From Escherichia coli (lineage in GTDB: Bacteria; Pseudomonadota; Gammaproteobacteria; Enterobacterales; Enterobacteriaceae), in assembly GCF_022846255.1 (NCBI RefSeq), contig NZ_AP025682.1: a stretch of DNA of 64,000 nucleotides. One strand, given 5' to 3'. Of this stretch, positions 5,503 to 50,045 are shown one piece after another; the stretch's first letter is position 1; the number at the start of each line of letters is the position of its first letter. Position numbers and translations under genes: made by a program. The notes below the pieces were generated by a model, which ran no database searches, was not told where the DNA came from, and saw only the letters and a list, made by a program, of their open reading frames with translations.

Positions 5503-5704
5503 GGCGTTCCTTCACCTGTTGTTTGAATGCCGCGACTCTACGCACCACTCCACACCTGTGCATTAGCGAGTTTTCATCCCTGCGAGACGCTTTCAGAGGA
5601 ATTTACGTCGCGCTGCAAGGGTTGCATTTTTATGGAAAGCCGCACGCAAAAAAGCCCGGATGCAAACGCATACCGGGCTTTTCAAAACAGGTGATGGAGT
5701 ATGG

Positions 5705-5941
5705 TTAACGCAGCGCCCACCACTCGCGCAGGCAGGCTTTGCCTTCCGGGCAGCTTTTACAATTGCCAGAGAGGCAGCCGTCAGGTTCTTCCTGAATCCG
5801 CACGGCTTTGCCCATGCTTTCCAGCTGTTGCAGCATGGCGTTAATCATTGGCTGCGGGGTGTTCAATGTCTGGCTTATCTGGGCCGCTTCCATCCGGCCC
5901 CGTAACGCCAGCAAATCACGCACCTGAATAAGTGAAGCCAT
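5705..5941 (-). CDS. feoC: ferrous iron transport protein FeoC
   Basis: 78-aa product from ATG (MASLIQ) at 5939-5941; ORF-track start at 5950 is a TTG extension; Cys-rich C-terminus; start overlaps feoB stop. Confidence 0.85.
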
Positions 5942-8262
5942 TAATGGCAATCACCGGTGGTGCTGGCTGCGCAGCAACTGCTTACCGACTTGCGCGTTGC
6001 CAGCAGTTCGATATCCACCCGGCTACGCGCGCGACGCAGCAAACCGATAACCACGATGTTAAACAGGATAACCGCCAGAATGCACACCAGGCTGTAAGTT
6101 GGATGCTGGCTGTAGCTGGCGACCTGATAGAACAATGTTGCCAGTGAGTAAGCAATATTCAGCCCCCACAGGATGGAGAAGCCCATCCAGCCACGGCTTG
6201 ATTCACGCGCGATAGCCCCCATCACCGAGATGCACGGTACGTACAGCAGGACGAAAATCAGGTAGCTGTATGCGGCAGCTGCGCTACCGAATTTCTGATC
6301 CATCACGCCCATCGCCCCGGTACCCATTTCGCCGTCGCCTTTGCTGGCTTCAATGGGGTTCATCAGTACGCTAAGGCTGAAGGTGTCTTTCAGGCTCTGC
6401 CAGGTTTCATCTACCGCACTGAACAGCTCTTCACCGAGGTTAAATTCCGCCGGATTGAACTCTTCGTCCTGAATATTTTCTGCGGTGTAGAGGGTGTTGA
6501 GCGTACCCACCACCACTTCTTTCGCCATGGCACCTGTAAACAGGCCAACCGTTGCCTGCCAGTTATCTTCATGTACGCCAATCGGCTTGAAGACCGGGGT
6601 GATCACCCGGCTGACGGAAGCCAGCGCCGAGTCGTTGATGTTATCGACGATTTTTCCGCTCAGCGAGAAGCTGTTGAAGGCGCTCAGGAAAATGCTGACA
6701 ATGATAATCACTTTACCAGCACGCAGAACGAAGCCTTTCAGACGCTGCCAGGTCTGGATAACCAGGCTTTTAACGTGTGGTACATGGTAGACCGGCAGCT
6801 CCATGACAAACGGCGTCGCTTCACCGCGCATGATGGTGTACTTGAGCATCAGGCCCGTCAGCACCGCCATTACGATACCCAGCATATACAGCGAGAAGAC
6901 CGCCAGCGCACCGTTCTGCCCGAAGAAGGCAGCCGCGAATACTGCGAAGATAGCCAGACGCGCGCCGCAGGACATAAACGGTGCCATCATGATGGTCATC
7001 AGACGTTCACGCGGTGCATCAAGCGTACGTGCGCCCATTACCGACGGTACGTTACAACCGAAACCAACGATCAGCGGTACAAAGGATTTCCCCGGCAAGC
7101 CCAGCGCCTGCATCAGGCGGTCCATCACAAACGCCGCACGCGCCATATAGCCGGAGTCCTCAAGGAAGGAGAGGAACAGGTACATCATGCCGATCTGCGG
7201 CACCAGTGGCAGCACGGTGTTAATACCGCCACCCAGGCCCTGGGCGAGGAAGATAGTCAGCCAGTCCGGGAAGTGGAGCGTGTAGCCAATCCACTGAATA
7301 CCATGCACAAACAGCGCCACGGAACCGACATCAAACAGCGGCTGTAACGCCCCGCCGATGTTGATAGCCAGCAGGAACATCAGGTACATCACAAAGAGGA
7401 AAATCGGCAGACCGAGGAAACGGTTGAGCACGATTTTATCTACCGCAGTGGTGAAACGGCTGGGTTCTGCCGTCAGGGTGTTGCTTACCACATCACAGAT
7501 GGCAGCAATGCACTGGTAACGCGCATCGGCAATGTGCAGCGCCGGATCGTCCATCTCATTACGCAGACGGGCGAGGGCGGCATCCAGATGCTGCGACGCT
7601 TCACCGGCGTAGGCGCGGCTGTAGATATCGCCTTCCAGCATTTGCAGGCCCAGCCAGCGACGTTGTTTCAGCGGGATGTCGGAAGGCATCACTTTTGCCA
7701 GTGAATCTGCTTCGTTGAGTAGCGGCTGTGCGTAATGCACCAGTTCCACATTCTCGTTAGCTTTATAGCGATCAATCGCCAGCTTGAGCGCTTCAATACC
7801 GCGACCACGGGTTGAAACCAGCGGGATCACCGGGCAGCCAAGACGCGCCGACAGAGCATCAATTTCAATACGAATATTTTGCTTCTCGGCAATGTCGAGC
7901 ATGTTCAGTGCCACGATGCAGGGAATGCCGAGTTCCAACAGTTGCAGCGTCAGGTACAGGTTACGCTCAAGGTTAGACGCATCCACCACGTTAATCAGCA
8001 GGTCTGCGTCGCCACTCAAAATGTAGTGACAGGCGATTTGCTCATCGAGCGAGGTCTGCGATGAGATGGTGGTCAGAGAATAGGTGCCGGGCAGGTCCAC
8101 CAGCGTGACCTGATGATCGGTGGTGGAGAATTGCCCTTCTTTACGTTCGACGGTAACGCCAGCCCAGTTACCTACACGCTGACGTGAGCCAGTGAGCTGG
8201 TTAAATAACGTTGTCTTGCCAGAATTTGGATTACCAATTAAGCCAATGGTTAATTTTTTCAT
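5941..8262 (-). CDS. feoB: ferrous iron transporter FeoB (GTPase plus permease)
   Basis: 773-aa product from [18 protein letters not shown] (G1 GTPase motif) at 8262; ORF-track start extended by 4 codons. Confidence 0.93.
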
Positions 8263-8278
8263 TGTTGTTATCACCGTA

Positions 8279-8506
8279 TTAACAGGAAACCGCTTCCACT
8301 TCTAATAAGGCCAGATCTTTTTTGCGTAATACCAGGCTCACACGACGGGTTTCGATATGAATGGGGTCGCCGAGTGGAGCGACGCGCACCACATTAAAAG
8401 AGGAGCCAGGTAACATGCCAAGAGAAAGCAGTTTTTGGCGATATGCCGGGCTGATTTCACGGGAAAAGCCAGTAATTTTCCACGCAGTATCTGGAGTGTA
8501 TTGCAT
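8279..8506 (-). CDS. feoA: ferrous iron transport protein FeoA
   Basis: 75-aa ORF immediately upstream of feoB. Confidence 0.92.
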
Positions 8507-8613
8507 AGGTGCCTACTTGTTTCTCATTAACTGGATAACTACCTCATGGGGCGTTTGACAGCGACATGAGACCAGATGATTTGCCAACGAAGGAGAGATT
8601 AAATAATCAACAG

Positions 8614-8633
8614 TACAATGATAATGAGAATGG
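8614..8633 (-). promoter_or_regulatory. candidate Fur box in feoA upstream region
   Basis: caATGATAATgAgaATgg resembles the GATAATGATAATCATTATC Fur consensus; feoABC is known to be Fur-repressed. Confidence 0.35.
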
Positions 8634-8695
8634 TTTCTATCAGCAATACTTAAAATGTGTGTGAATGTTGGTTTGAATAATAATCTGACTCAATG

Positions 8696-8709
8696 TTGAT
8701 ATGGCTCAA
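8696..8709 (-). promoter_or_regulatory. candidate FNR site in feoA upstream region
   Basis: TTGAT-atgg-CTCAA, one mismatch from TTGAT-N4-ATCAA; feo is known to be FNR-activated. Confidence 0.3.
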
Positions 8710-8834
8710 GGTTATATCGCAGCGAAAATATAATTCGCATGACGAATTATTAGGGCTGGTTAATGTTTAATTAAGGTTTCAGTTGTTAATGAAGTGATAA
8801 ATATTAATGGGATATATTATGAGTTTGCTTGTGG

Positions 8835-8862
8835 AATAAAAAGGCCGGAGATATTCTCCGGC
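8835..8862 (-). terminator. rho-independent terminator downstream of tex
   Basis: ggccggagatattctccggc hairpin flanked by A-tract on + strand (T-tract on - strand). Confidence 0.6.
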
Positions 8863-8871
8863 ACTTTTATG

Positions 8872-8920
8872 TCAGGCAAGGCGTTCGTTGCCAGATGTGG
8901 CGTGAACGCCTAATCGCGCA
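8872..8920. repeat. REP-like palindromic element
   Basis: ggcgttc...gaacgcc inverted repeat with REP-like flanks just downstream of tex. Confidence 0.4.
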
Positions 8921-8943
8921 GGTTTAGGGGCCAGTCCGGGCGT

Positions 8944-11265
8944 TTAACGTTTTTTGCCCATTGCCGCCGCCAGCGCATCCATCATCGCGCTATTACCGGC
9001 AGGCTGCGCTTCACGCCCACGCGGTTTGGCTGCCGGGCGGTTGTTTTGCGGGCGATCGTTACCGCCACCGCGACGGGCGTTGGTTTCGCCAGGCTGCTCG
9101 TCCAGACGCATGGTCAGGGCGATACGTTTACGCTGAAGATCCACTTCCAGCACTTTCACCTTCACAATGTCGCCCGCTTTCACCACGGTATGCGGATCTT
9201 CCACAAACTTGTTCGACAATGAAGAGATGTGAACCAGGCCGTCCTGATGCACGCCAATATCGACAAACGCGCCAAAGTTGGTGACGTTGGTCACCGCACC
9301 TTCGAGGATCATACCCGGTTGCAGGTCGTTCATTGTCTCGACGCCATCGGCAAACTGAGCGGTTTTAAATTCCGGACGCGGATCGCGACCCGGTTTTTCC
9401 AGCTCTTTGATGATGTCGGTTACCGTCGGCACACCGAATTTTTCATCAGTAAAGTCAGACGCTTTCAGGTTACGCAGCTCGCTGCTGTTACCCATCAGAT
9501 CTTTCAGTGCCTGCTGTGTTGCTGCCAGAATGCGTTCCACCACCGGATAGGCTTCCGGGTGGACGGTAGACGCGTCCAGCGGGTTATCACCATGGTTAAT
9601 GCGCAAGAAGCCCGCGCACTGCTCGAAGGCTTTCGGCCCCAGACGGCTCACTTTTAACAGTTGCTGACGGTTCTGGAACTGGCCGTTCTCATCGCGCCAG
9701 GCCACGATGTTTTGCGCCATCATGCGCGTCAGGCCCGCCACGCGGGTTAACAGAGGAACAGAAGCGGTGTTGAGATCGACGCCAACGGCGTTTACGCAGT
9801 CTTCTACTACTGCATCCAGTTTGCGTGCCAGCTGCGTCTGGCTGACGTCATGCTGATACTGACCTACGCCGATAGATTTCGGATCGATTTTCACCAGCTC
9901 CGCCAGCGGATCCTGCAAACGACGGGCGATAGACACCGCGCCACGCAGCGAAACGTCGAGATCCGGGAATTCCTGTGCTGCCAGCTCGGAAGCCGAGTAA
10001 ACCGACGCGCCAGCTTCGCTGACGATCACTTTCTGCGCGGTCACTTTCGGGAACTGCTTCTGCACGTCGAGATAGAAACGTTCGGTTTCGCGGGAAGCTG
10101 TACCGTTGCCGATCGCCACCAGTTCAACATTATGCTTTTCACACAGGGCGGCAACGGTCATCGCTGCTTTTGCGGCCTGCCCGGTATGCGGGTAAATGGT
10201 ATCGGTCGCCACCAGTTTGCCAGTTGCATCGACTACCGCCACTTTTACCCCGGTACGCAGACCCGGATCGAGGCCCATCGTTGCACGCAGTCCGGCAGGG
10301 GCCGCCATCAGCAGATCGTGCAGGTTACGGGCAAAGACGTTGATTGCTTCATCTTCCGCGCGTTCGCGCACGGTGCCCATCAGTTCAGTTTCCAGATGCA
10401 TCAACACCTTGATGCGCCACGTCCAGCTCACCACACCTTTGCGCCAGCTATCCGCCGGGGCATTGTTCAGGCGCAGGCCAAGGTGATCCATGATGATTTG
10501 CTCGCAATAGCTCTCTTTCGGCGGCTCTTCGAACTGCGGATCGGCATTCAGCGAAAGCTGAAGTATGCCTTCGTTACGACCACGGAACATCGCCAGCGCG
10601 CGGTGAGAAGGCACCGTTGACAGCGGTTCGTGATGATCGAAATAGTCGCGGAATTTCGCCCCTTCCTCTTCTTTACCGCTCACCACCGTAGAAACCAAAT
10701 GCGCGTTCTTCCACAGATAATCACGCACTTTCGCCAGCAGCGCGGCATCTTCGGCAAACCGTTCCATCAGGATATAGCGCGCGCCGTCCAGCGCGGCTTT
10801 GGTATCTGCCACGCCTTTATCGGCATCAATATATTGTGCAGCGGCGACTTCTGGCGTGTGTGACGGATCGCTCCACAGCAGATCGGCCAACGGCTCAAGC
10901 CCTGCTTCAATGGCGATTTGCCCACGGGTGCGGCGTTTAGGTTTGTAGGGCAGGTAGAGGTCTTCGAGTTCGGTTTTGCTTAGGGTGGCGTTGATGGCAT
11001 TCGCCAGATCATCGGTGAGTTTGCCTTGCTCGGAAATGGACTTGAGGATCGCCTGACGTCTCTCTTCCAGCTCGCGCAGATAGCTCAGACGCGTTTCCAG
11101 ATTACGCAGCTGCGTGTCATCCAGACCGCCGGTGATTTCCTTACGATAACGTGCGATAAACGGCACGGTATTCCCTTCGTCAAGCAGGCGAACGGCAGCG
11201 TCAACCTGTTCCGGGCGCGCCTGAATTTCACCCGCAATAATGCGGCAGAACGAATCATTCATCAT
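8944..11265 (-). CDS. tex: transcription accessory protein Tex (YhgF), S1 domain protein
   Basis: 773-aa ORF recognised as Tex/YhgF. Confidence 0.93.
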
Positions 11266-30905: not shown

Positions 30906-31994
30906 ATGGAGAGGATTGTCGTTACTCTCGGGGAACGTAGTTACCCAATTACCATCGCATCTGGTTTGTTTAATGAACCAGCTTCATTCTTACCGCTGAA
31001 ATCGGGCGAGCAGGTCATGTTGGTCACCAACGAAACCCTGGCTCCTCTGTATCTCGATAAGGTCCGCGGCGTACTTGAACAGGCGGGTGTTAACGTCGAT
31101 AGCGTTATCCTCCCTGACGGCGAGCAGTATAAAAGCCTGGCTGTACTCGATACCGTCTTTACGGCATTGTTACAAAAGCCGCATGGTCGCGATACTACTC
31201 TGGTGGCGCTTGGCGGCGGCGTAGTGGGCGATCTGACCGGCTTCGCGGCGGCGAGTTATCAGCGCGGTGTACGTTTCATTCAAGTCCCGACGACGTTACT
31301 GTCGCAGGTCGATTCCTCCGTTGGCGGCAAAACTGCGGTCAACCATCCCCTCGGTAAAAACATGATTGGCGCGTTCTACCAGCCCGCTTCAGTGGTGGTG
31401 GATCTCGACTGTCTGAAAACGCTTCCCCCGCGTGAGTTAGCGTCGGGGCTGGCAGAAGTCATCAAATACGGCATTATTCTTGACGGTGCGTTTTTTAACT
31501 GGCTGGAAGAGAATCTGGATGCGTTGTTGTGTCTGGACGGTCCGGCAATGGCGTACTGTATTCGCCGTTGTTGTGAGCTGAAAGCAGAAGTTGTCGCCGC
31601 CGACGAGCGCGAAACCGGGTTACGTGCTTTACTGAATCTGGGACACACCTTTGGTCATGCCATTGAAGCTGAAATGGGGTATGGCAATTGGTTACATGGT
31701 GAAGCGGTCGCTGCGGGTATGGTGATGGCGGCGCGGACGTCGGAACGTCTCGGGCAGTTTAGTTCTGCCGAAACGCAGCGTATTATAACCCTGCTCACGC
31801 GGGCTGGGTTACCGGTCAATGGGCCGCGCGAAATGTCCGCGCAGGCGTATTTACCGCATATGCTGCGTGACAAGAAAGTCCTTGCGGGAGAGATGCGCTT
31901 AATTCTTCCGTTGGCAATTGGTAAGAGTGAAGTTCGCAGCGGCGTTTCGCACGAGCTTGTTCTTAACGCCATTGCCGATTGTCAATCAGCGTAA
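30906..31994 (+). CDS. aroB: 3-dehydroquinate synthase
   Basis: 362-aa ORF recognised as AroB. Confidence 0.95.
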
Positions 31995-32085
31995 CAACAA
32001 GAAAGGTCAGGCCGCTTATCAAGCGGTCTATTAGCTTCAGGTTAATTGCAACGTGGTAAGCATTAACCTTTTAGTGGGGTGTTAA

Positions 32086-33372
32086 ATGGATGAATTCAAA
32101 CCAGAAGACGAGCTGAAACCCGATCCCAGCGATCGTCGTACTGGTCGTTCTCGTCAATCTTCTGAACGTTCTGAGCGTACTGAACGTGGCGAACCGCAGA
32201 TCAATTTTGATGATATTGAACTTGATGACACTGACGATCGCCGTCCGACTCGTGCGCAAAAAGCGCGTAATGAGGAACCGGAAATCGAAGAAGAAATTGA
32301 CGAATCCGAAGATGAAACCGTGGATGAAGAGCGCGTAGAGCGTCGTCCGCGTAAGCGCAAAAAAGCAGCCAGTAAACCCGCTTCTCGTCAGTATATGATG
32401 ATGGGTGTCGGCATTCTGGTTCTACTGCTGTTGATCATCGGTATCGGTTCTGCGCTAAAAGCCCCCTCGACCTCTTCCAGCGATCAAACCGCGTCTGGCG
32501 AGAAGAGTATTGATCTTGCAGGCAATGCGACCGATCAGGCCAATGGCGTGCAGCCAGCGCCGGGAACCACGTCTGCGGAAAATACTCAGCAGGATGTTTC
32601 TCTGCCGCCGATCTCTTCTACGCCGACTCAAGGGCAAACCCCGGCGGCAACGGATGGTCAGCAACGTGTTGAAGTGCAGGGTGACCTGAACAATGCGCTG
32701 ACCCAGCCACAAAATCAGCAACAGTTGAACAATGTGGCGGTCAATTCTACATTGCCGACTGAACCCGCAACGGTTGCGCCTGTTCGCAATGGCAATGCAT
32801 CGCGTGACACGGCGAAAACGCAAACCGCTGAACGTCCGGCCACTACGCGCCCAGCTCGTCAGCAGGCGGTGATTGAACCGAAAAAACCGCAAGCAACCGT
32901 GAAAACGGAACCGAAGCCAGTCGCACAGACGCCGAAGCGAACTGAACCAGCTGCCCCTGTGGCGAGCACGAAGGCACCGGCTGCGACTTCTACGCCAGCA
33001 CCAAAAGAGACGGCGACTACGGCTCCAGTACAGACGGCATCCCCGGCGCAAACCACGGCAACACCAGCCGCTGGAGGGAAGACCGCAGGTAATGTTGGTT
33101 CGTTGAAATCGGCACCGTCCAGCCATTACACTCTGCAGCTGAGCAGTTCCTCTAACTACGACAACCTGAACGGTTGGGCGAAGAAAGAGAATCTGAAAAA
33201 CTACGTTGTCTATGAAACGACGCGTAATGGTCAGCCGTGGTATGTCCTGGTTTCTGGCGTGTATGCTTCGAAAGAAGAGGCGAAAAAAGCGGTATCTACA
33301 TTGCCAGCAGATGTCCAGGCCAAAAACCCGTGGGCGAAACCGCTGCGTCAGGTACAGGCCGATCTGAAGTAA
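32086..33372 (+). CDS. damX: cell division protein DamX (SPOR domain)
   Basis: 428-aa ORF; acidic N-terminus, TM segment, long Pro/Thr/Ala/Gln-rich linker, C-terminal SPOR-like domain. Confidence 0.93.
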
Positions 33373-33478
33373 TCAAGGTTATCTCCCGCAATGGTTTATC
33401 ATTGCGGGAGTTGCCTGAAGCGCTGGATGCTGTCGGAGCTTTCTCCACAGCCGGAGAAGGTGTAATTAGTTAGTCAGC

Positions 33479-34315
33479 ATGAAGAAAAATCGCGCTTTTT
33501 TGAAGTGGGCAGGGGGCAAGTATCCCCTGCTTGATGATATTAAACGGCATTTGCCCAAGGGCGAATGTCTGGTTGAGCCTTTTGTAGGTGCCGGGTCGGT
33601 GTTTCTCAACACCGACTTTTCTCGTTATATCCTTGCCGATATCAATAGCGACCTGATCAGTCTCTATAACATTGTGAAGATGCGTACTGATGAGTACGTA
33701 CAGGCCGCACGCGAGCTGTTTGTTCCCGAAACAAATTGCGCCGAGGTTTACTATCAGTTCCGCGAAGAGTTCAACAAAAGCCAGGATCCGTTCCGTCGGG
33801 CGGTACTGTTTTTATATTTGAACCGCTACGGTTACAACGGCCTGTGTCGTTACAATCTGCGCGGTGAGTTTAACGTGCCGTTTGGCCGCTACAAAAAACC
33901 CTATTTCCCGGAAGCAGAGTTGTATCACTTTGCTGAAAAAGCGCAGAATGCTTTTTTCTTTTGTGAATCTTATGCCGCCAGTATGGCACGAGCGGATCAA
34001 TCCTCGGTGGTGTATTGCGATCCACCTTACGCACCGCTTTCTGCAACCGCTAACTTTACGGCATACCATACGGACAGTTTTAGCCTGGAACAGCAGGCTC
34101 ATCTGGCGGAGATCGCCGAAGATCTGGTTAACAGGCAGATCCCGGTGTTGATCTCCAACCATGATACGGCGTTAACGCGCGAGTGGTATCAGCGCGCAAA
34201 ATTGCATGTCGTCAAAGTTCGACGCAGTATAAGCAGCAACGGCGGCACACGTAAAAAGGTGGACGAACTGCTGGCTCTGTACAAACCAGGAGTCGTTTCA
34301 CCCGCGAAAAAATAG
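33479..34315 (+). CDS. dam: DNA adenine methyltransferase (GATC)
   Basis: 278-aa ORF with DPPY catalytic motif (VYCDPPYAP). Confidence 0.96.
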
Positions 34316-34332
34316 TTCTCAAGGAGAAGCGG

Positions 34333-35010
34333 ATGAAACAGTATTTGATTGCCCCCTCAATTCTGTCGGCGGATTTTGCCCGCCTGGGTGAAGATACCGC
34401 AAAAGCCCTGGCGGCGGGTGCAGATGTCGTGCATTTTGACGTCATGGATAACCACTACGTTCCCAATCTGACGATTGGGCCGATGGTGCTGAAATCTCTG
34501 CGTAATTATGGCATTACTGCCCCTATTGATGTGCATCTGATGGTGAAACCGGTCGATCGCATTGTGCCTGATTTCGCTGCCGCTGGTGCCAGCATCATTA
34601 CCTTTCATCCAGAAGCCTCCGAGCATGTTGACCGCACGCTGCAACTGATTAAAGAAAATGGCTGTAAAGCGGGTCTGGTATTTAACCCGGCGACACCGCT
34701 GAGCTATCTGGATTACGTGATGGACAAACTGGATGTGATCCTGCTGATGTCCGTCAATCCTGGTTTCGGCGGTCAGTCTTTCATTCCTCAAACACTGGAT
34801 AAACTGCGCGAAGTACGTCGTCGTATCGACGAGTCTGGCTTTGACATTCGACTGGAAGTGGACGGTGGCGTGAAGGTGAACAACATTGGCGAAATCGCTG
34901 CGGCGGGCGCGGATATGTTTGTTGCTGGTTCGGCAATCTTCGACCAGCCAGACTACAAAAAAGTCATTGATGAAATGCGCAGTGAACTGGCAAAGGTAAG
35001 TCATGAATAA
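34333..35010 (+). CDS. rpe: ribulose-phosphate 3-epimerase
   Basis: 225-aa ORF recognised as Rpe. Confidence 0.95.
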
Positions 35011-35761
35011 GTTTGAAGATATTCGCGGCGTCGCTTTTGATCTCGACGGTACGCTGGTTGACAGTGCACCCGGTCTTGCTGCTGCGGTAGATATGGCGCT
35101 GTATGCGCTGGAGTTGCCTGTCGCAGGTGAAGAACGCGTTATTACCTGGATTGGTAACGGCGCAGATATTCTGATGGAGCGCGCATTGACCTGGGCGCGT
35201 CAGGAACGTGCGACTCTGCGTAAAACAATGGGTAAACCGCCCGTTGATGACGACATTCCGGCAGAAGAACAGGTACGTATTCTGCGTAAACTGTTCGATC
35301 GCTACTATGGCGAGGTTGCCGAAGAGGGGACGTTTTTGTTCCCGCACGTTGCCGATACGTTGGGCGCGTTGCAGGCTAAAGGCCTGCCGCTAGGCCTGGT
35401 CACCAACAAACCGACGCCGTTCGTCGCGCCGCTGCTCGAAGCCTTAGATATCGCCAAATACTTCAGCGTGGTGATTGGTGGTGATGATGTGCAAAATAAA
35501 AAACCGCACCCGGACCCGCTGCTACTGGTGGCTGAGCGGATGGGCATTGCTCCACAACAGATGCTGTTTGTTGGCGACTCACGCAATGATATTCAGGCAG
35601 CAAAAGCGGCAGGTTGCCCATCAGTTGGCTTAACCTACGGATATAACTACGGCGAGGCTATCGATCTCAGCCAGCCTGATGTAATTTATCAGTCTCTAAA
35701 TGACCTTCTGCCCGCATTAGGGCTTCCGCATAGCGAAAATCAGGAATCGAAAAATGACTAA
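35003..35761 (+). CDS. gph: phosphoglycolate phosphatase
   Basis: 252-aa HAD-family ORF ([10 protein letters not shown]); overlaps rpe end by 8 nt. Confidence 0.94.
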
Positions 35762-36758
35762 GCCCATCGTTTTTAGTGGCGCACAGCCCTCAGGTGAATT
35801 GACCATTGGTAACTACATGGGTGCGCTGCGTCAGTGGGTAAACATGCAGGATGACTACCATTGCATTTACTGTATCGTTGACCAACACGCGATCACCGTG
35901 CGCCAGGATGCACAGAAGCTGCGTAAAGCGACGCTGGATACGCTGGCGTTGTATCTGGCTTGTGGTATCGATCCTGAGAAAAGCACCATTTTTGTTCAGT
36001 CCCACGTGCCGGAACATGCGCAGTTAGGCTGGGCATTGAACTGCTATACCTACTTCGGCGAACTGAGCCGCATGACACAGTTTAAAGATAAATCTGCGCG
36101 TTATGCCGAGAACATCAACGCTGGTCTGTTTGACTATCCGGTGCTGATGGCAGCGGACATCCTGCTGTATCAAACTAATCTGGTGCCGGTGGGTGAAGAC
36201 CAGAAACAGCACCTGGAACTGAGCCGCGATATCGCCCAGCGTTTCAACGCGCTGTACGGCGATATCTTTAAGGTGCCAGAGCCGTTTATTCCGAAATCTG
36301 GCGCGCGCGTAATGTCGCTGCTGGAGCCGACCAAGAAGATGTCCAAGTCTGACGATAACCGCAATAACGTTATCGGCCTGCTGGAAGATCCGAAATCGGT
36401 AGTGAAGAAAATCAAACGCGCGGTCACTGACTCCGACGAGCCGCCGGTAGTTCGCTACGATGTGCAGAACAAAGCGGGCGTTTCCAACCTGCTGGATATC
36501 CTTTCTGCGGTAACGGGCCAGAGCATCCCGGAACTGGAAAAACAGTTCGAAGGCAAGATGTATGGTCATCTGAAAGGTGAAGTGGCTGATGCCGTTTCCG
36601 GTATGCTGACTGAATTGCAGGAACGTTACCACCGTTTCCGCAACGATGAAGCCTTCCTGCAACAGGTGATGAAAGACGGCGCAGAAAAAGCCAGCGCACA
36701 CGCTTCCCGTACGCTAAAAGCGGTGTACGAAGCGATTGGTTTTGTGGCGAAGCCGTAA
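35754..36758 (+). CDS. trpS: tryptophan--tRNA ligase
   Basis: 334-aa ORF with class I HIGH-type (TIGNYMG) and KMSKS motifs. Confidence 0.96.
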
Positions 36759-39449: not shown

Positions 39450-40676
39450 ATGGCGCGATTTGTGGTGTTAGTGATTGATAGCTTTGGCGTAGGGGCAATG
39501 AAAGATGTCACGTTGGTGCGTCCGCAGGATGCCGGGGCGAATACCTGTGGTCACATCCTGAGCCAGTTGCCGCATTTGCAGCTACCAACGCTGGAGACGC
39601 TGGGGCTAATCAACGCATTGGGTTATGCGCCTGGCGATATGCAGCCGTCAGACTCCGCAACCTGGGGCGTGGCAGAGCTGCAACATGAAGGTGGCGATAC
39701 CTTTATGGGGCATCAGGAGATTTTAGGTACGCGCCCATTACCGCCGCTGCGGATGCCCTTTCATGATGTGATTGACCGTGTTGAGCAGGCATTAGTTTCC
39801 GCTGGTTGGCAGGTGGAGCGCCGTGGCGATGATCTGCAATTTCTGTGGGTCAATCAGGCGGTTGCGATTGGCGATAATCTCGAGGCGGATTTAGGGCAGG
39901 TCTATAACATCACCGCCAATCTCTCTGTGATCTCTTTTGACGACGCAATCAAAATTGGTCGTATCGTGCGTGAGCAGGTACAGGTCGGTCGGGTCATTAC
40001 ATTTGGCGGCCTGTTAACCGACAGTCAACGCATTCTCGATGCCGCAGAAAGCAAAGAAGGGCGCTTTATTGGCATCAATGCGCCGCGTTCAGGCGCTTAT
40101 GACAACGGCTTCCAGGTCGTGCATATGGGCTACGGCGTCGATGAGAAAGTGCAGGTGCCGCAAAAACTGTATGAAGCGGGCGTGCCAACCGTGCTGGTGG
40201 GTAAGGTGGCGGATATCGTCAGCAATCCTTATGGCGTGAGCTGGCAAAACCTGGTGGATAGCCAGCGGATTATGGATATCACTCTCGACGAATTTAACAC
40301 CCATCCGACGGCGTTTATTTGCACCAATATCCAGGAAACCGACCTCGCTGGTCATGCAGAAGACGTCGCACGTTATGCCGAACGTTTGCAGGTCGTTGAC
40401 CGTAACCTTGCCCGGCTTGTTGAGGTGATGCAGCCAGATGATTGCCTGCTCGTGATGGCGGATCACGGTAACGATCCGACCATTGGTCACAGCCACCATA
40501 CCCGCGAAGTAGTGCCAGTGCTGGTTTATCAGCAAGGGCTGGTCGCTACGCAGCTCGGTGTGCGCACCACGCTTTCTGATGTGGGGGCCACCGTGTGTGA
40601 ATTTTTCCGCGCGCCACCGCCACAAAATGGTCGCTCTTTTCTTTCCTCCCTCCGGTTTGCAGGAGACACCCTATGA
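39450..40676 (+). CDS. yhfW: phosphopentomutase-like metalloenzyme YhfW
   Basis: 408-aa ORF recognised as YhfW; start abuts yhfX stop. Confidence 0.85.
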
Positions 40677-41551
40677 GTTTTGATCCGACGGGCTACACCT
40701 TCGCCCATGAGCATCTGCATATTGATCTTTCCGGCTTTAAAAACAACGTGGACTGCCGCCTTGATCAGTATGCGTTCATTTGCCAGGAGATGAACGACCT
40801 GATGGCCCGGGGCGTGCGTAATGTGATTGAGATGACCAACCGTTACATGGGGCGCAATGCGCAATTTATGCTCGATGTAATGCGCGAAACCGGGATCAAC
40901 GTGGTGGCCTGTACCGGTTATTACCAGGACGCGTTTTTCCCGGAACATGTGGCGACCCGCAGCGTGCAGGAACTGGCGCAGGAGATGGTCGATGAAATTG
41001 AGCAGGGTATCGATGGCACTGACCTGAAAGCCGGGATCATCGCGGAGATTGGCTCCAGCGAAGGGAAGATTACGCCGCTGGAAGAGAAGGTGTTTATTGC
41101 CGCCGCGCTGGCACATAACCAGACCGCACGCCCGATCTCCACGCATACGTCGTTCAGCACGATGGGGCTGGAGCAACTGGCTCTGTTGCAAGCCCACGGA
41201 GTTGATCTTTCGCGCGTCACCGTCGGCCACTGCGATCTGAAAGACAATCTCGACAACATTTTGAAGATGATCGATCTCGGCGCGTATGTGCAGTTCGACA
41301 CCATCGGCAAGAACAGTTACTACCCGGACGAAAAGCGCATTGCGATGCTCCATGCGCTACGTGACCGTGGGTTGCTGAACCGCGTCATGCTGTCGATGGA
41401 TATTACGCGGCGCTCTCATTTAAAAGCCAACGGTGGTTATGGCTATGACTTTTTATTGACCACCTTTATTCCGCAATTGCGCCAGTCAGGATTCAGTCAG
41501 GCCGATGTGGATGTGATGTTACGTGAAAATCCCTCTCAATTTTTCCAATAA
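40673..41551 (+). CDS. php: phosphotriesterase homology protein (amidohydrolase fold)
   Basis: 292-aa ORF with N-terminal HxH metal-ligand motif ([11 protein letters not shown]); ATGA overlap with yhfW. Confidence 0.88.
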
Positions 41552-47178: not shown

Positions 47179-47505
47179 TTAACCGCGCAGCTGTACCACG
47201 CCGTCTTTCACTCGCGCGTCGTAATGCTTGACGGAAAACTGTTCGTCTTCCATGCACAAGCCGTCGCTTAAGCGAAAACGCTGTTTTTTCAGCGGGCTGG
47301 CGACCCACAGCTCGCCCTGGTGTTCCGCAATCAGCCCGCGTGACAGCACGCTGGACTCGAAGAACGGATCGATGTTGCTGATCGCAAACACCTGGTCGCT
47401 GTGATACGGGCGGAAAATTGCTACCTGCTCGTCACCTAACAGCGCGCAGACGCCGGTTTCAGGCAGGATGTCATCGATTTTGCAGATGTCTTTCCACTGG
47501 CTCAT
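47179..47505 (-). CDS. nirD: nitrite reductase (NADH) small subunit
   Basis: 108-aa ORF; start overlaps nirB stop (ATGA). Confidence 0.94.
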   Translation of the reverse strand: MSQWKDICKIDDILPETGVCALLGDEQVAIFRPYHSDQVFAISNIDPFFESSVLSRGLIAEHQGELWVASPLKKQRFRLSDGLCMEDEQFSVKHYDARVKDGVVQLRG

Positions 47506-50045
47506 GCGTTGTCCTCCACCAGAGTTACCGGGATACGTTCATACGGCGTTGCCGGACGGTGCTGTTCGCGCTCTGGTACCATCTGCACGTTCGGGTCACG
47601 CTTGTCGCTGTTGATGAAGTGTTTGAAGCGAGTCTGCGCAGACGGCGTATTGACCGTTTCAGTCCACTCACACACTACCGCTTCACGCAGGCGCGCCATC
47701 TCTTCTTCCAGATGAGCGTTCAGCCCCAGTTTGTCGTCAATGATCACCGCTTTCAGGTAATCGATGCCGCCTTCGAGGTTTTCTAACCACGGCGCGGTAC
47801 GCGTCAGTTTGTCGGCGGTACGGATGTAGAACATCATGAAGCGGTCGAGATATTTGATCAGCGTTTCGCGATCGATATCCGCTGCCAGCAGATCCGCATG
47901 ACGCGGTTTCATGCCGCCGTTACCGCAAACGTACAGGTTCCAGCCTTTTTCGGTGGCGATAATACCCACGTCTTTACCCTGAGCTTCTGAACATTCACGG
48001 GTACAGCCGGAGACACCGAACTTCATTTTGTGCGGCGTACGGATACCTTTGTAGCGGTTTTCCAGTTCCACGCCGAGGCCGACGCTGTCGCCAACGCCGT
48101 AGCGGCACCAGGTGCTACCCACGCAGGTTTTCGCCATACGCAGTGCTTTCGCATAGGCATGACCGGTTTCGAAACCGGCTTCAATCAGCTGACGCCAGAT
48201 TTCCGGCAGATCGTCTTTCTGTGCGCCAAACATCGCCAGGCGCTGGGAGCCGGTGATTTTGGTGTAGAGATTAAATTCACGCGCGATACGACCCACTGCC
48301 ATCAGCCCTTCCGGGGTGATTTCACCGCCCGGAGAACGCGGGATCACCGAGTAGGTGCCATCTTTCTGGATGTTAGCGAGGAAGTTGTCGTTAGAATCCT
48401 GCAGCGGAGTATGTTCCGGCTTCAGAATGTATTCGTTCCAGCAGGAGGCCAGCAGCGAACCGACGGTCGGTTTACAAACTTCACAACCGTAGCCTTTGCC
48501 GTGTTTCGCCAGCAGCTCTTCGAAGGTTTTAATGCCTTCAACGCGGATCAAATGGAACAGTTCCTGACGCGAATAAGCAAAGTGTTCGCACAGGTTGTTG
48601 TTAACTTCGATGCCCTGTTTCGCCAGTTCCGCGTTCAGTACCTGAGTGACCAGCGGGATACAGCCACCGCAGCCAGTACCCGCTTTGGTTTCAGCTTTCA
48701 GCGCCGCAACGGTGTGGCAGCCTTTGTTGATGGCAGCAATCAGATCACCTTTGGTGACGTCGAAGCAGGAGCAGATTTGCGCGCTGTCCGGCAGTTTATC
48801 AACACCGATAGACGGCTTACCGCTACCCGAGTGCGCCGGCAGAATCAGAGAATCCGGGTTTTCCGGCAGCTCGATAGCATTCAGCACCAGTTGCAGCAGG
48901 TTGCCGTAGTCGCTGGTATCGCCCACCAGTACCGCACCGAGCAGGGTTTTGTTGTCTTCGCTGACAATAAGGCGTTTGTAGATCTCTTTGCTTTCGTCGA
49001 GGTAAACGTAGCTACGTGCGCCAGGCGTGCGACCGTGCGCATCACCAATACCACCTACGTCTACGCCCAGCAGTTTCAACTTGGCGCTAAGGTCAGCACC
49101 TTCAAAGGCGTTTTCGCTACCAAGAATATGGTCAACGGCGACCTGCGCCATTTTGTAGCCAGGTGCTACCAGACCAAATACACGGTTGTTCCAGCTTGCG
49201 CATTCACCGATGGCGTAGATATCCGGATCGGAAGTCTGGCAGGAATCATTGATGACAATACCCCCACGCGGAGCAACGTCCAGACCACACTGGGTTGCCA
49301 GCTTATCGCGCGGACGGATACCGGTTGAGAAGACGATAAAGTCGACTTCCAGCTCGCTGCCGTCGGCAAAACGCATGGTTTTACGCGCTTCGACACCTTC
49401 CTGCACAATCTCAAGGGTGTTTTTGCTGGTGTGAACGCGCACGCCCATACTTTCGATTTTGCGACGCAGCTGCTCGCCACCCATCTGATCAAGCTGTTCC
49501 GCCATCAGCATAGGGGCAAATTCGATAACGTGGGTTTCAATACCTAAGTTTTTCAGCGCGCCAGCGGCTTCCAGACCTAACAGGCCGCCACCAACAACGG
49601 CACCGCGTTTGCTGCGACGGGCACAGGATTCAATGGCGTTGAGGTCTTCAATGGTGCGATAGACAAAGCAGTCCTGAGTATCAGAACCTTTGATTGGCGG
49701 GATCCACGGGTAGGAACCGGTTGCCATGATCAGCTTGTCATAAAAAACGGTACGTCCGGCGCTGGAGTGAATCACCTTCTCCTGACGGTTGATGGTGATA
49801 GCGCGTTCGCCGACCAGAACTTTGATGCCGTGTTTCTCGTAGAAGCCTTCGCGCACCAGCGACAGCTCTTCGGCGGTGTGGTGAGAGAAGTAAGACGAGA
49901 GGTGTACGCGGTCATAAGCGATGCGCGGTTCTTCACAGAAAACGGTAATATCAAAGTTGGCCGCATCAGATTTATCAAGAAGATCTTCGATAAAGCGATG
50001 GCCGACCATACCGTTACCGATAATTGCGAGTCTGACTTTGCTCAT
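47502..50045 (-). CDS. nirB: nitrite reductase (NADH) large subunit
   Basis: 847-aa ORF with N-terminal FAD/NAD Rossmann motif and siroheme/Fe-S Cys clusters. Confidence 0.96.
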   Translation of the reverse strand: MSKVRLAIIGNGMVGHRFIEDLLDKSDAANFDITVFCEEPRIAYDRVHLSSYFSHHTAEELSLVREGFYEKHGIKVLVGERAITINRQEKVIHSSAGRTVFYDKLIMATGSYPWIPPIKGSDTQDCFVYRTIEDLNAIESCARRSKRGAVVGGGLLGLEAAGALKNLGIETHVIEFAPMLMAEQLDQMGGEQLRRKIESMGVRVHTSKNTLEIVQEGVEARKTMRFADGSELEVDFIVFSTGIRPRDKLATQCGLDVAPRGGIVINDSCQTSDPDIYAIGECASWNNRVFGLVAPGYKMAQVAVDHILGSENAFEGADLSAKLKLLGVDVGGIGDAHGRTPGARSYVYLDESKEIYKRLIVSEDNKTLLGAVLVGDTSDYGNLLQLVLNAIELPENPDSLILPAHSGSGKPSIGVDKLPDSAQICSCFDVTKGDLIAAINKGCHTVAALKAETKAGTGCGGCIPLVTQVLNAELAKQGIEVNNNLCEHFAYSRQELFHLIRVEGIKTFEELLAKHGKGYGCEVCKPTVGSLLASCWNEYILKPEHTPLQDSNDNFLANIQKDGTYSVIPRSPGGEITPEGLMAVGRIAREFNLYTKITGSQRLAMFGAQKDDLPEIWRQLIEAGFETGHAYAKALRMAKTCVGSTWCRYGVGDSVGLGVELENRYKGIRTPHKMKFGVSGCTRECSEAQGKDVGIIATEKGWNLYVCGNGGMKPRHADLLAADIDRETLIKYLDRFMMFYIRTADKLTRTAPWLENLEGGIDYLKAVIIDDKLGLNAHLEEEMARLREAVVCEWTETVNTPSAQTRFKHFINSDKRDPNVQMVPEREQHRPATPYERIPVTLVEDNA

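Follow-up and report, generated by a model that had tools for sequence, protein, structure and literature searches.

The window analysed here is a 64-kb stretch of DNA, and its positions 30906..36758 carry aroB, damX, dam, rpe, gph and trpS of Escherichia coli. damX sits between aroB and dam, within the gene order aroK-aroB-damX-dam-rpe-gph-trpS that is found in RefSeq for the near-identical strain 1105. The product of damX matches the DamX equivalog NF008153 of NCBIfam with 850.9 bits (2e-256; cut-off 256), with residues 1–428 aligned to model positions 1–424. The SPOR domain PF05036 of Pfam was located at residues 345–418 with 54.2 bits against a cut-off of 21, and residues 334–428 correspond to the solved SPOR domain deposited as 'Protein damX' (PDB 2LFV) at 1.3e-55. 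The sense gene is DamX itself, the SPOR-domain cell-division protein, with no difference noted. damX is present at no less than 95% identity in 5,425 of 5,426 complete E. coli genomes, and the exact DamX protein of this window was found on at least 1000 contigs. In all the genomes inspected, RefSeq annotates damX alone over this stretch and no antisense gene opposite it. The positions of the features discussed below are collected in Table 1.

Table 1. Parts of damX, antisense frames and sites of length variation, in window coordinates.
Feature	Position	Strand	Remarks
damX coding sequence, real gene	32086..33372	+	428 aa plus stop; equivalog match, RefSeq, synteny
DamX transmembrane segment, about residues 104–124	32395..32457	+	hydrophobicity judged from translation
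Low-complexity Ala/Thr/Pro/Gln-rich periplasmic linker, about residues 125–337	32458..33096	+	T-poor, Leu-poor; cross-species indels cluster here
SPOR domain, residues 338–428	33097..33369	+	Pfam and PDB match; likewise without antisense stops
Flagged antisense ORF, 223 codons	32455..33126	−	ATG at 33126, TAG at 32457..32455; codon-aligned (−1) frame
Full stop-free antisense stretch, 305 codons	32458..33372	−	spans whole linker and whole SPOR domain
Second antisense ORF, 65 aa	32859..33056	−	GTG start, another frame; from the ORF list
12-bp in-frame indel site, ACGCCAGCCGCA (Thr-Pro-Ala-Ala) between direct repeats ACGCCAGC	32984..32999 (at 32992)	+	insert absent here
6-bp CCGGCC (Pro-Ala) tandem duplication after Arg250	32830..32841	+	E. 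coli VCSW7
+Glu-Pro after Thr286			430-aa Shigella flexneri variant, also 433-aa variant
+Val-Ala-Pro after Thr229			433-aa variant
−Ser-Glu-Arg, N-terminal 9-bp repeat region			425-aa variant

DamX consists of a cytoplasmic N-terminal region, a transmembrane segment, a periplasmic linker and the SPOR domain. An earlier note, made from the letters of this DNA, had described the linker as a Pro/Thr/Ala/Gln-rich stretch of low complexity, and its composition bears this out: Ala accounts for 16.5%, Thr for 15.2%, Pro for 12.1% and Gln for 9.8% of residues 124–347. The same note had spoken of repeated units in the linker, which is right for the composition and wrong for tandem DNA repeats. Tandem Repeats Finder reported none in the linker, its sole array being a 9-bp repeat in the N-terminal region, and the repetition of the linker is therefore compositional. 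A further repeat search yielded nothing beyond one two-copy match of 13 nt and an inverted repeat of low quality, probably due to chance. Thymine makes up 14.3% of the sense strand of the linker and 10.3% of positions 32800–33100, compared with 24.1% in the window. Because the sense strand is poor in T, fewer stops are expected on the opposite strand across the linker; from base composition alone, the expectation is 0.022–0.030 minus-strand stops per codon in the linker versus 0.042 in the window, for all three antisense frames. The proposal that the biased spelling of the linker lowers the density of antisense stops was thus correct.

The linker was also supposed to tolerate variation in length between strains. 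The alignment of damX across strains revealed small in-frame indels in the linker, between strains as well as between species, and showed them to be uncommon. The length of DamX varies between 420 and 451 aa in 85 Enterobacteriaceae sequences, with the indels clustered in residues 141–180, in residues 241–340 and in the acidic N-terminal part, and with none in the SPOR domain or in the transmembrane segment, which is conserved. Within E. coli the length of DamX is nearly fixed and linker variants are small and uncommon; of 40 records taken at even intervals from 5,425 genomes, 39 gave a 1287-nt match. The known length variants differ by a few in-frame codons, gained or lost as units of local repeats. 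The 12-bp ACGCCAGCCGCA insert is present in E. albertii, E. whittamii, Escherichia sp. E1V33, E. coli VCSW7 and the 432-aa DamX variant, the last of which was found on at least 1000 contigs.

On the minus strand, the 223-aa Arg/Cys/Trp-rich frame of the earlier note was found at exactly the coordinates given there. The frame starts at 33126, a third codon position in damX, and its codons are exact reverse complements of damX codons; stops are therefore possible solely opposite sense TTA and CTA (Leu) and TCA (Ser). The stop-free stretch is bounded on one side by a TGA, the complement of the TCA at 33373..33375 that lies right after the damX TAA, and on the other by a TAG, the complement of the CTA of Leu124. 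It reaches 305 codons because damX holds just two stop-mirroring codons, CTA at residues 113 and 124, both of which fall in the transmembrane segment and are the sole representatives of TTA, CTA and TCA in damX. Since no ATG, GTG or TTG occurs within the first 82 codons of the stretch, the ORF is given a length of 223 aa. The antisense product contains 25.6% Arg, 6.3% Cys and 4.0% Trp, in comparison with 5.6%, 1.2% and 1.5% in the genes of the window; it lacks Glu and carries a net charge of +55. Its Arg, Cys, Trp, Gly and Ser residues arise because GCN, ACN and CCN reverse-complement to NGC, NGT and NGG. The 65-aa antisense ORF in another frame sits inside an 88-codon stop-free run (32862..33125), and this run is consistent with an A-poor antisense strand, for which 0.022 stops per codon are expected.

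Why is the codon-aligned frame open for such a length? The linker had been named as its source, which holds only in part: the linker contributes, but the open stretch extends beyond it, across the SPOR domain, as far as the damX stop. Across residues 126–337 there are 6 Leu (2.8% of 212 residues) and 15 Ser, and across the SPOR part 9 Leu and 11 Ser, and not one of these is spelled TTA, CTA or TCA. In the entire gene the 35 Ser codons are distributed as TCT 17, AGC 5, TCC 5, TCG 5, AGT 3 and TCA 0, and the 23 Leu codons as CTG 14, TTG 5, CTT 2 and CTA 2. What decides the length is the alignment of the frame with the damX codons, combined with the scarcity of TTA, CTA and TCA in damX; the composition of the linker helps. 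Three factors keep these codons rare in damX. First, the periplasmic linker offers little Leu and little T, because it is built of Ala, Thr, Pro and Gln. Second, damX favours TCT for Ser, avoiding TCA altogether, and CTG for Leu. Third, ordinary chance plays its part. The rule for frame −1, and the probability (1−f_Leu)^N_Leu × (1−f_Ser)^N_Ser that goes with it, are described in a preprint (10.1101/724807), and the same formula was applied here.

The role of chance was quantified with two null models. When the synonymous codons of damX itself were permuted, an ORF of at least 223 aa appeared with P = 0.44 and an open run of at least 304 codons with P = 0.36. When the DamX protein was held fixed and its codons were redrawn from the average usage of the genes in the window, the corresponding probabilities were 0.08 and 0.03, and the open run had a median length of 164 codons. 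Under this usage 6.5 stop-mirroring codons would be expected in damX, against the two that are present (P = 0.035). These window-usage figures (the run with P = 0.03 and the two stop-mirroring codons with P = 0.035) lie in the upper tail, and they were counted against the reading of the frame as a by-product. The window as a whole provides a further comparison. Ten ORFs that reach 200 aa or more lie antisense within longer ORFs there, nine of the ten in the codon-aligned frame and most of them opposite ordinary genes. The damX antisense ORF is the sixth longest of the ten; the five ahead of it (432, 274, 258, 256 and 225 aa) lie opposite ordinary non-repetitive genes, and the nearby gene rpe has a shadow ORF of 215 aa opposite it. 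Since long shadow ORFs occur opposite ordinary genes such as rpe, low complexity helps but is not required. The length of the damX antisense ORF is unremarkable and needs no selection to explain it.

These data also bear on the reading of the earlier note in its literal form, in which a linker of low complexity would alone suffice for the long antisense frame and be its main cause. It is true that the composition of the linker (Leu 2.8%, T 14.3%) roughly halves the density of antisense stops, and that a median open run as long as 164 codons already results when the codons of DamX are resampled. However, the open frame runs 91 codons further through the SPOR domain, which is non-repetitive, and an ORF of at least 223 aa arises in just 8% of the resamplings at average usage. 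The nine other long shadow ORFs of the window lie opposite ordinary genes, and relatives whose linkers are equally low in complexity carry several antisense stops. We therefore regard low complexity as unlikely to be the sufficient and main cause.

A second alternative is that a functional non-coding antisense RNA regulates damX or dam, with the ORF being incidental to it. Antisense transcription is pervasive in E. coli; nothing specific speaks for such an RNA here. Neither promoter-like nor terminator-like sites were found on the minus strand within or just upstream of 32455..33400, and the sole matches of the promoter and terminator scan on this strand lie near 32110–32240, downstream of the antisense ORF. 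The region 31500..34000 gave no match in an Rfam scan at E ≤ 1. The only inverted repeat is a weak one of 19 nt with 79% complementarity. In addition, synonymous divergence is not depressed in the linker, and within E. coli it is higher there than in the rest of damX. A regulatory RNA at this place is thus very improbable.

The remaining alternatives give the frame a product of its own. The antisense ORF may be taken for a young overlapping gene restricted to E. coli, whose weak translation would give a strongly basic protein, as in the antisense overlapping genes reported from enterohaemorrhagic E. coli. The frame does begin with an ATG, counts 223 codons, is intact in all the sequences of E. 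coli proper that were examined and is called by gene callers in a handful of assemblies; under average codon usage its run length falls in the upper few per cent, and there are published reports of antisense overlapping genes in E. coli, asa being one (PMC6294744). Several lines of evidence stand against it, namely coding potential, expression signals, homology, selection and conservation.

Coding potential was scored as codon log-odds trained on the genes of the window. The antisense ORF scored −0.18 bits per codon, below all 49 gene-like ORFs (0.34 ± 0.13, minimum −0.14), while damX in the sense direction scored 0.30. Rare codons make up 49% of the Arg codons in the antisense ORF versus 19% in genes. 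The composition of the product described above, with a quarter of its residues being Arg, a charge of +55 and no Glu, is a further point against a gene. As for signals, no AGGAGG-like Shine-Dalgarno motif occurs in GCAGAGTGTA, which lies upstream of the antisense ATG, and no sigma-70-like promoter was found on the minus strand between 33127 and 33600; consensus scans such as these are weak evidence either way. Neither antisense product matched a family in Pfam or NCBIfam. A collection of about 15 billion predicted proteins lacks the exact antisense protein sequence and holds no more than 14 clusters similar to it, most of which come from short or chimeric assembly contigs. These clusters were rejected as independent support, given that several of them are frame-switching or chimeric products of short contigs.

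Selection was assessed by Nei-Gojobori dN/dS over the span of the ORF, in eight comparisons ranging from other E. coli strains to Salmonella and Citrobacter. The values were 0.00–0.12 for the sense frame and 1.14–5.39 for the antisense frame, which exceeds 1 within E. coli too. Sense dN/dS is 0.00–0.17 in all regions of damX, and purifying selection is therefore clear even on the low-complexity linker. Nearly all the changes that are synonymous in the sense frame alter the antisense product; within E. coli, 16 of the 17–19 changes alter an antisense amino acid. Antisense dN/dS above 1 is in part artificial, being produced by constraint on the sense frame, and it denotes a lack of constraint rather than positive selection.

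Conservation was followed across species; a partial damX (locus L082) is absent from the ORF set and a truncated ORF of 328 aa (locus L057) was excluded from the alignments. In the linkers of 77 Enterobacteriaceae species, 150 antisense stops were observed, compared with 134.6 predicted by codon usage in the flanking genes, and 13 species had a linker devoid of antisense stops versus 17.6 expected. There was accordingly neither a depletion of antisense stops nor excess conservation across these 77 species. Outside E. coli proper, the homologous span is stop-free in 5 of 78 loci and interrupted in 73. The ORF is intact in 7 of 7 sequences of E. coli proper examined and in Escherichia sp. MOD1-EC7003. 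Its intactness across E. coli proper is expected by descent, since these sequences are 97–99.9% identical. In the other Escherichia species examined the frame is interrupted in all but one cryptic lineage. E. whittamii, Escherichia sp. E1V33 and SCPM-O-B-8794 (a divergent representative titled 'E. coli') have a stop two codons past the ATG, E. albertii has one at codon 137, and the antisense stops of E. fergusonii, opposite residues 133, 177, 186, 221 and 321, all fall inside the span.

The literature offers a comparison in both directions. The antisense overlapping genes of E. coli O157:H7, of which asa is one, are likewise long, fully embedded antisense to another gene and confined to a narrow lineage; according to the papers that describe them, they are backed by transcription, ribosome-profiling and phenotype evidence (PMC6294744). 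Unlike them, the damX antisense ORF is known from its sequence alone, and it fails the tests of selection, conservation, coding potential and expression signals. PIRT-Seq, a genome-wide translation-reporter transposon screen in E. coli (PMC12350097), names damX solely for a nested 'in-damX' candidate, which was followed up and which was observed in one selection replicate only. This candidate lies on the sense strand in the +1 frame and comprises 50 codons at 32186..32338, the tagging primers abutting the TAG at 32336..32338. Both it and the antisense ORF are alternative frames in damX, but 'in-damX' falls in the cytoplasmic N-terminal region, outside the flagged interval. It is the only published alternative-frame candidate in damX that was found. 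No peptide string of the antisense ORF occurs in the supplementary tables of that study, and the names of neighbouring genes there led to nothing relevant. Our literature search found no report of an antisense product of damX. Two papers that came up as possible antisense reports (PMC7242855 and PMC5719062) were set aside, as 'antisense' in them denotes the orientation of a resistance cassette or occurs in a cited title; the 'overlapping genes' of PMC5719062 are overlapping gene sets rather than nested genes.

Taken with these observations, a young overlapping gene restricted to E. coli is extremely improbable. We give just as little credence to the related idea of an E. coli-specific proto-gene, in which occasional antisense transcription would yield a basic Arg/Cys/Trp-rich polypeptide too young to show purifying selection. 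The 223-aa ORF is almost certainly a non-functional shadow of damX and not a gene, and the antisense frame is probably neither transcribed nor translated at a meaningful level. dN/dS, conservation, coding score, protein families and RefSeq all agree with the advice of the earlier note that the antisense frames should not be annotated.

The damX shadow ORF is an ordinary and well-understood artefact, and frames of this kind are common. Shadow ORFs in frame −1 of bacterial genes share with it the codon alignment, stops confined to positions opposite TTA, CTA and TCA, and the lack of purifying selection and of conservation. Nothing essential differs, except that the Leu-poor and T-poor linker of damX adds a compositional boost beyond codon bias. 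The case says nothing new on DamX or on overlapping genes. Its use lies in annotation hygiene, since length alone is no ground for calling antisense ORFs, especially in the codon-aligned frame, and it may serve as a worked quantitative example that combines a null model, dN/dS in two frames and stop counts across species. If the ORF were translated after all, it would be one more candidate for a de novo antisense gene in E. coli, but none of the present results suggests this.

A separate observation, unrelated to the antisense ORF, concerns the neighbouring genes. A tract of ~0.95 kb (roughly 33900..34850), which takes in the 3′ half of dam together with most of rpe, shows near identity to E. 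fergusonii, and its flanks are identical to E. coli strain 1105. The Dam protein (WP_137501922.1) is a mosaic of E. coli and E. fergusonii. An origin of this tract from a phage or plasmid was considered and rejected, because the matches in the phage and plasmid collections are at most 85% identical. The annotated ones among these matches are dam genes, and several of the matches lie in megabase-sized, chromosome-like records.

Comparison of the window with the near-identical E. coli strain 1105 and with Escherichia fergusonii shows that the divergent tract in dam and rpe is a recombinant one, acquired from E. fergusonii. The 5′ part of dam (33479..33898) shows no difference from strain 1105. 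The two sequences then differ at ~70 positions between about 33899 and 34800, 50 of which are packed into the 250 bp between 33931 and 34180, and E. fergusonii is nearly identical to the window across the same interval; identity with strain 1105 resumes from about 34856. At the protein level, all ten diagnostic residues of Dam (10/10, residues 161-231) agree with E. fergusonii. A protein with exactly the mosaic Dam sequence of the window, WP_137501922.1, is present on two contigs. Over 33373..35010, none of the 5,426 complete E. coli genomes had an identity above 95.9% to the window.

Collinearity between the window and strain 1105 (locus L087) is also broken at about 5600..9300, where window ORFs (e.g. 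5941..8274) are shifted down by ~740 nt relative to feoB, which occupies 6682..9003 in that locus. From about 16950 onward, the coordinates of the two match within a few bases. This offset, together with the later agreement, implies that the two differ by an indel in the vicinity of bioH, the Rpn pseudogene and feo.

Nucleotide differences within E. coli are concentrated in the low-complexity linker of damX (32461..33096) relative to the rest of the gene. Compared with K-12, 19 of the 23 differences in damX fall within linker residues 126-337, and the dS values for the linker, the SPOR domain and the N-terminal part are 0.094, 0.016 and 0.024, respectively. The contrast between the linker and the rest of damX weakens with distance, for instance against Salmonella. 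Either a recombination mosaic or a weaker synonymous constraint could account for this concentration within E. coli.

In the N-terminal region of DamX, the Ser-Glu-Arg / Thr-Glu-Arg repeats are encoded by the 9-bp tandem repeat of TTCTGAACG; in a DamX variant of 425 aa from E. coli, one of the Ser-Glu-Arg units is missing at this place. The 50-codon nested ORF in the +1 frame of damX corresponds to the 'in-damX' nested candidate that was followed up in PIRT-Seq, a translation-reporter transposon screen of E. coli (PMC12350097): the tagging primers stop just short of the TAG at 32336..32338, and the candidate comes from a single selection replicate only. A Tn-seq paper on Salmonella Typhimurium 14028s (PMC7242855) lists a hypothetical gene, 'STM14_4197.J', whose tag is derived from the damX locus tag STM14_4197; judging from this tag, the gene is probably located at or beside damX of that strain.

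The window holds nine more shadow ORFs, 205-432 aa long and antisense-nested in longer gene-like ORFs, eight of them in the codon-aligned frame, in which codons are reverse complements of those of the host gene. The largest, with 432 aa, lies on the strand opposite to an 847-aa ORF at 47502..50045. All nine probably represent the same artefact as the ORF opposite damX.

Coordinates of features in the window
Feature	Position	Strand	Description
Tandem repeat	32160..32187	+	9-bp unit x 3.1; damX N-terminal region
Nested ORF	32186..32338	+	inside damX, +1 frame; 50 codons, GTG start
Sigma-70-like promoter match	33103..33132	+ (sense)	3′ part of damX; TTGAAA, 18-nt spacer, TACACT; 9/12
Divergent tract	33900..34850		dam (3′ half) and rpe (most of it)
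Further shadow ORF	6571..7347	+	antisense-nested
Further shadow ORF	9850..10620	+	antisense-nested
Further shadow ORF	34357..35004	-	antisense-nested
Further shadow ORF	36024..36701	-	antisense-nested
Further shadow ORF	40529..41353	-	antisense-nested
Further shadow ORF	48030..49328	+	antisense-nested

Promoters for dam have been reported within damX, and dam lies ~350 nt downstream of the sigma-70-like match.
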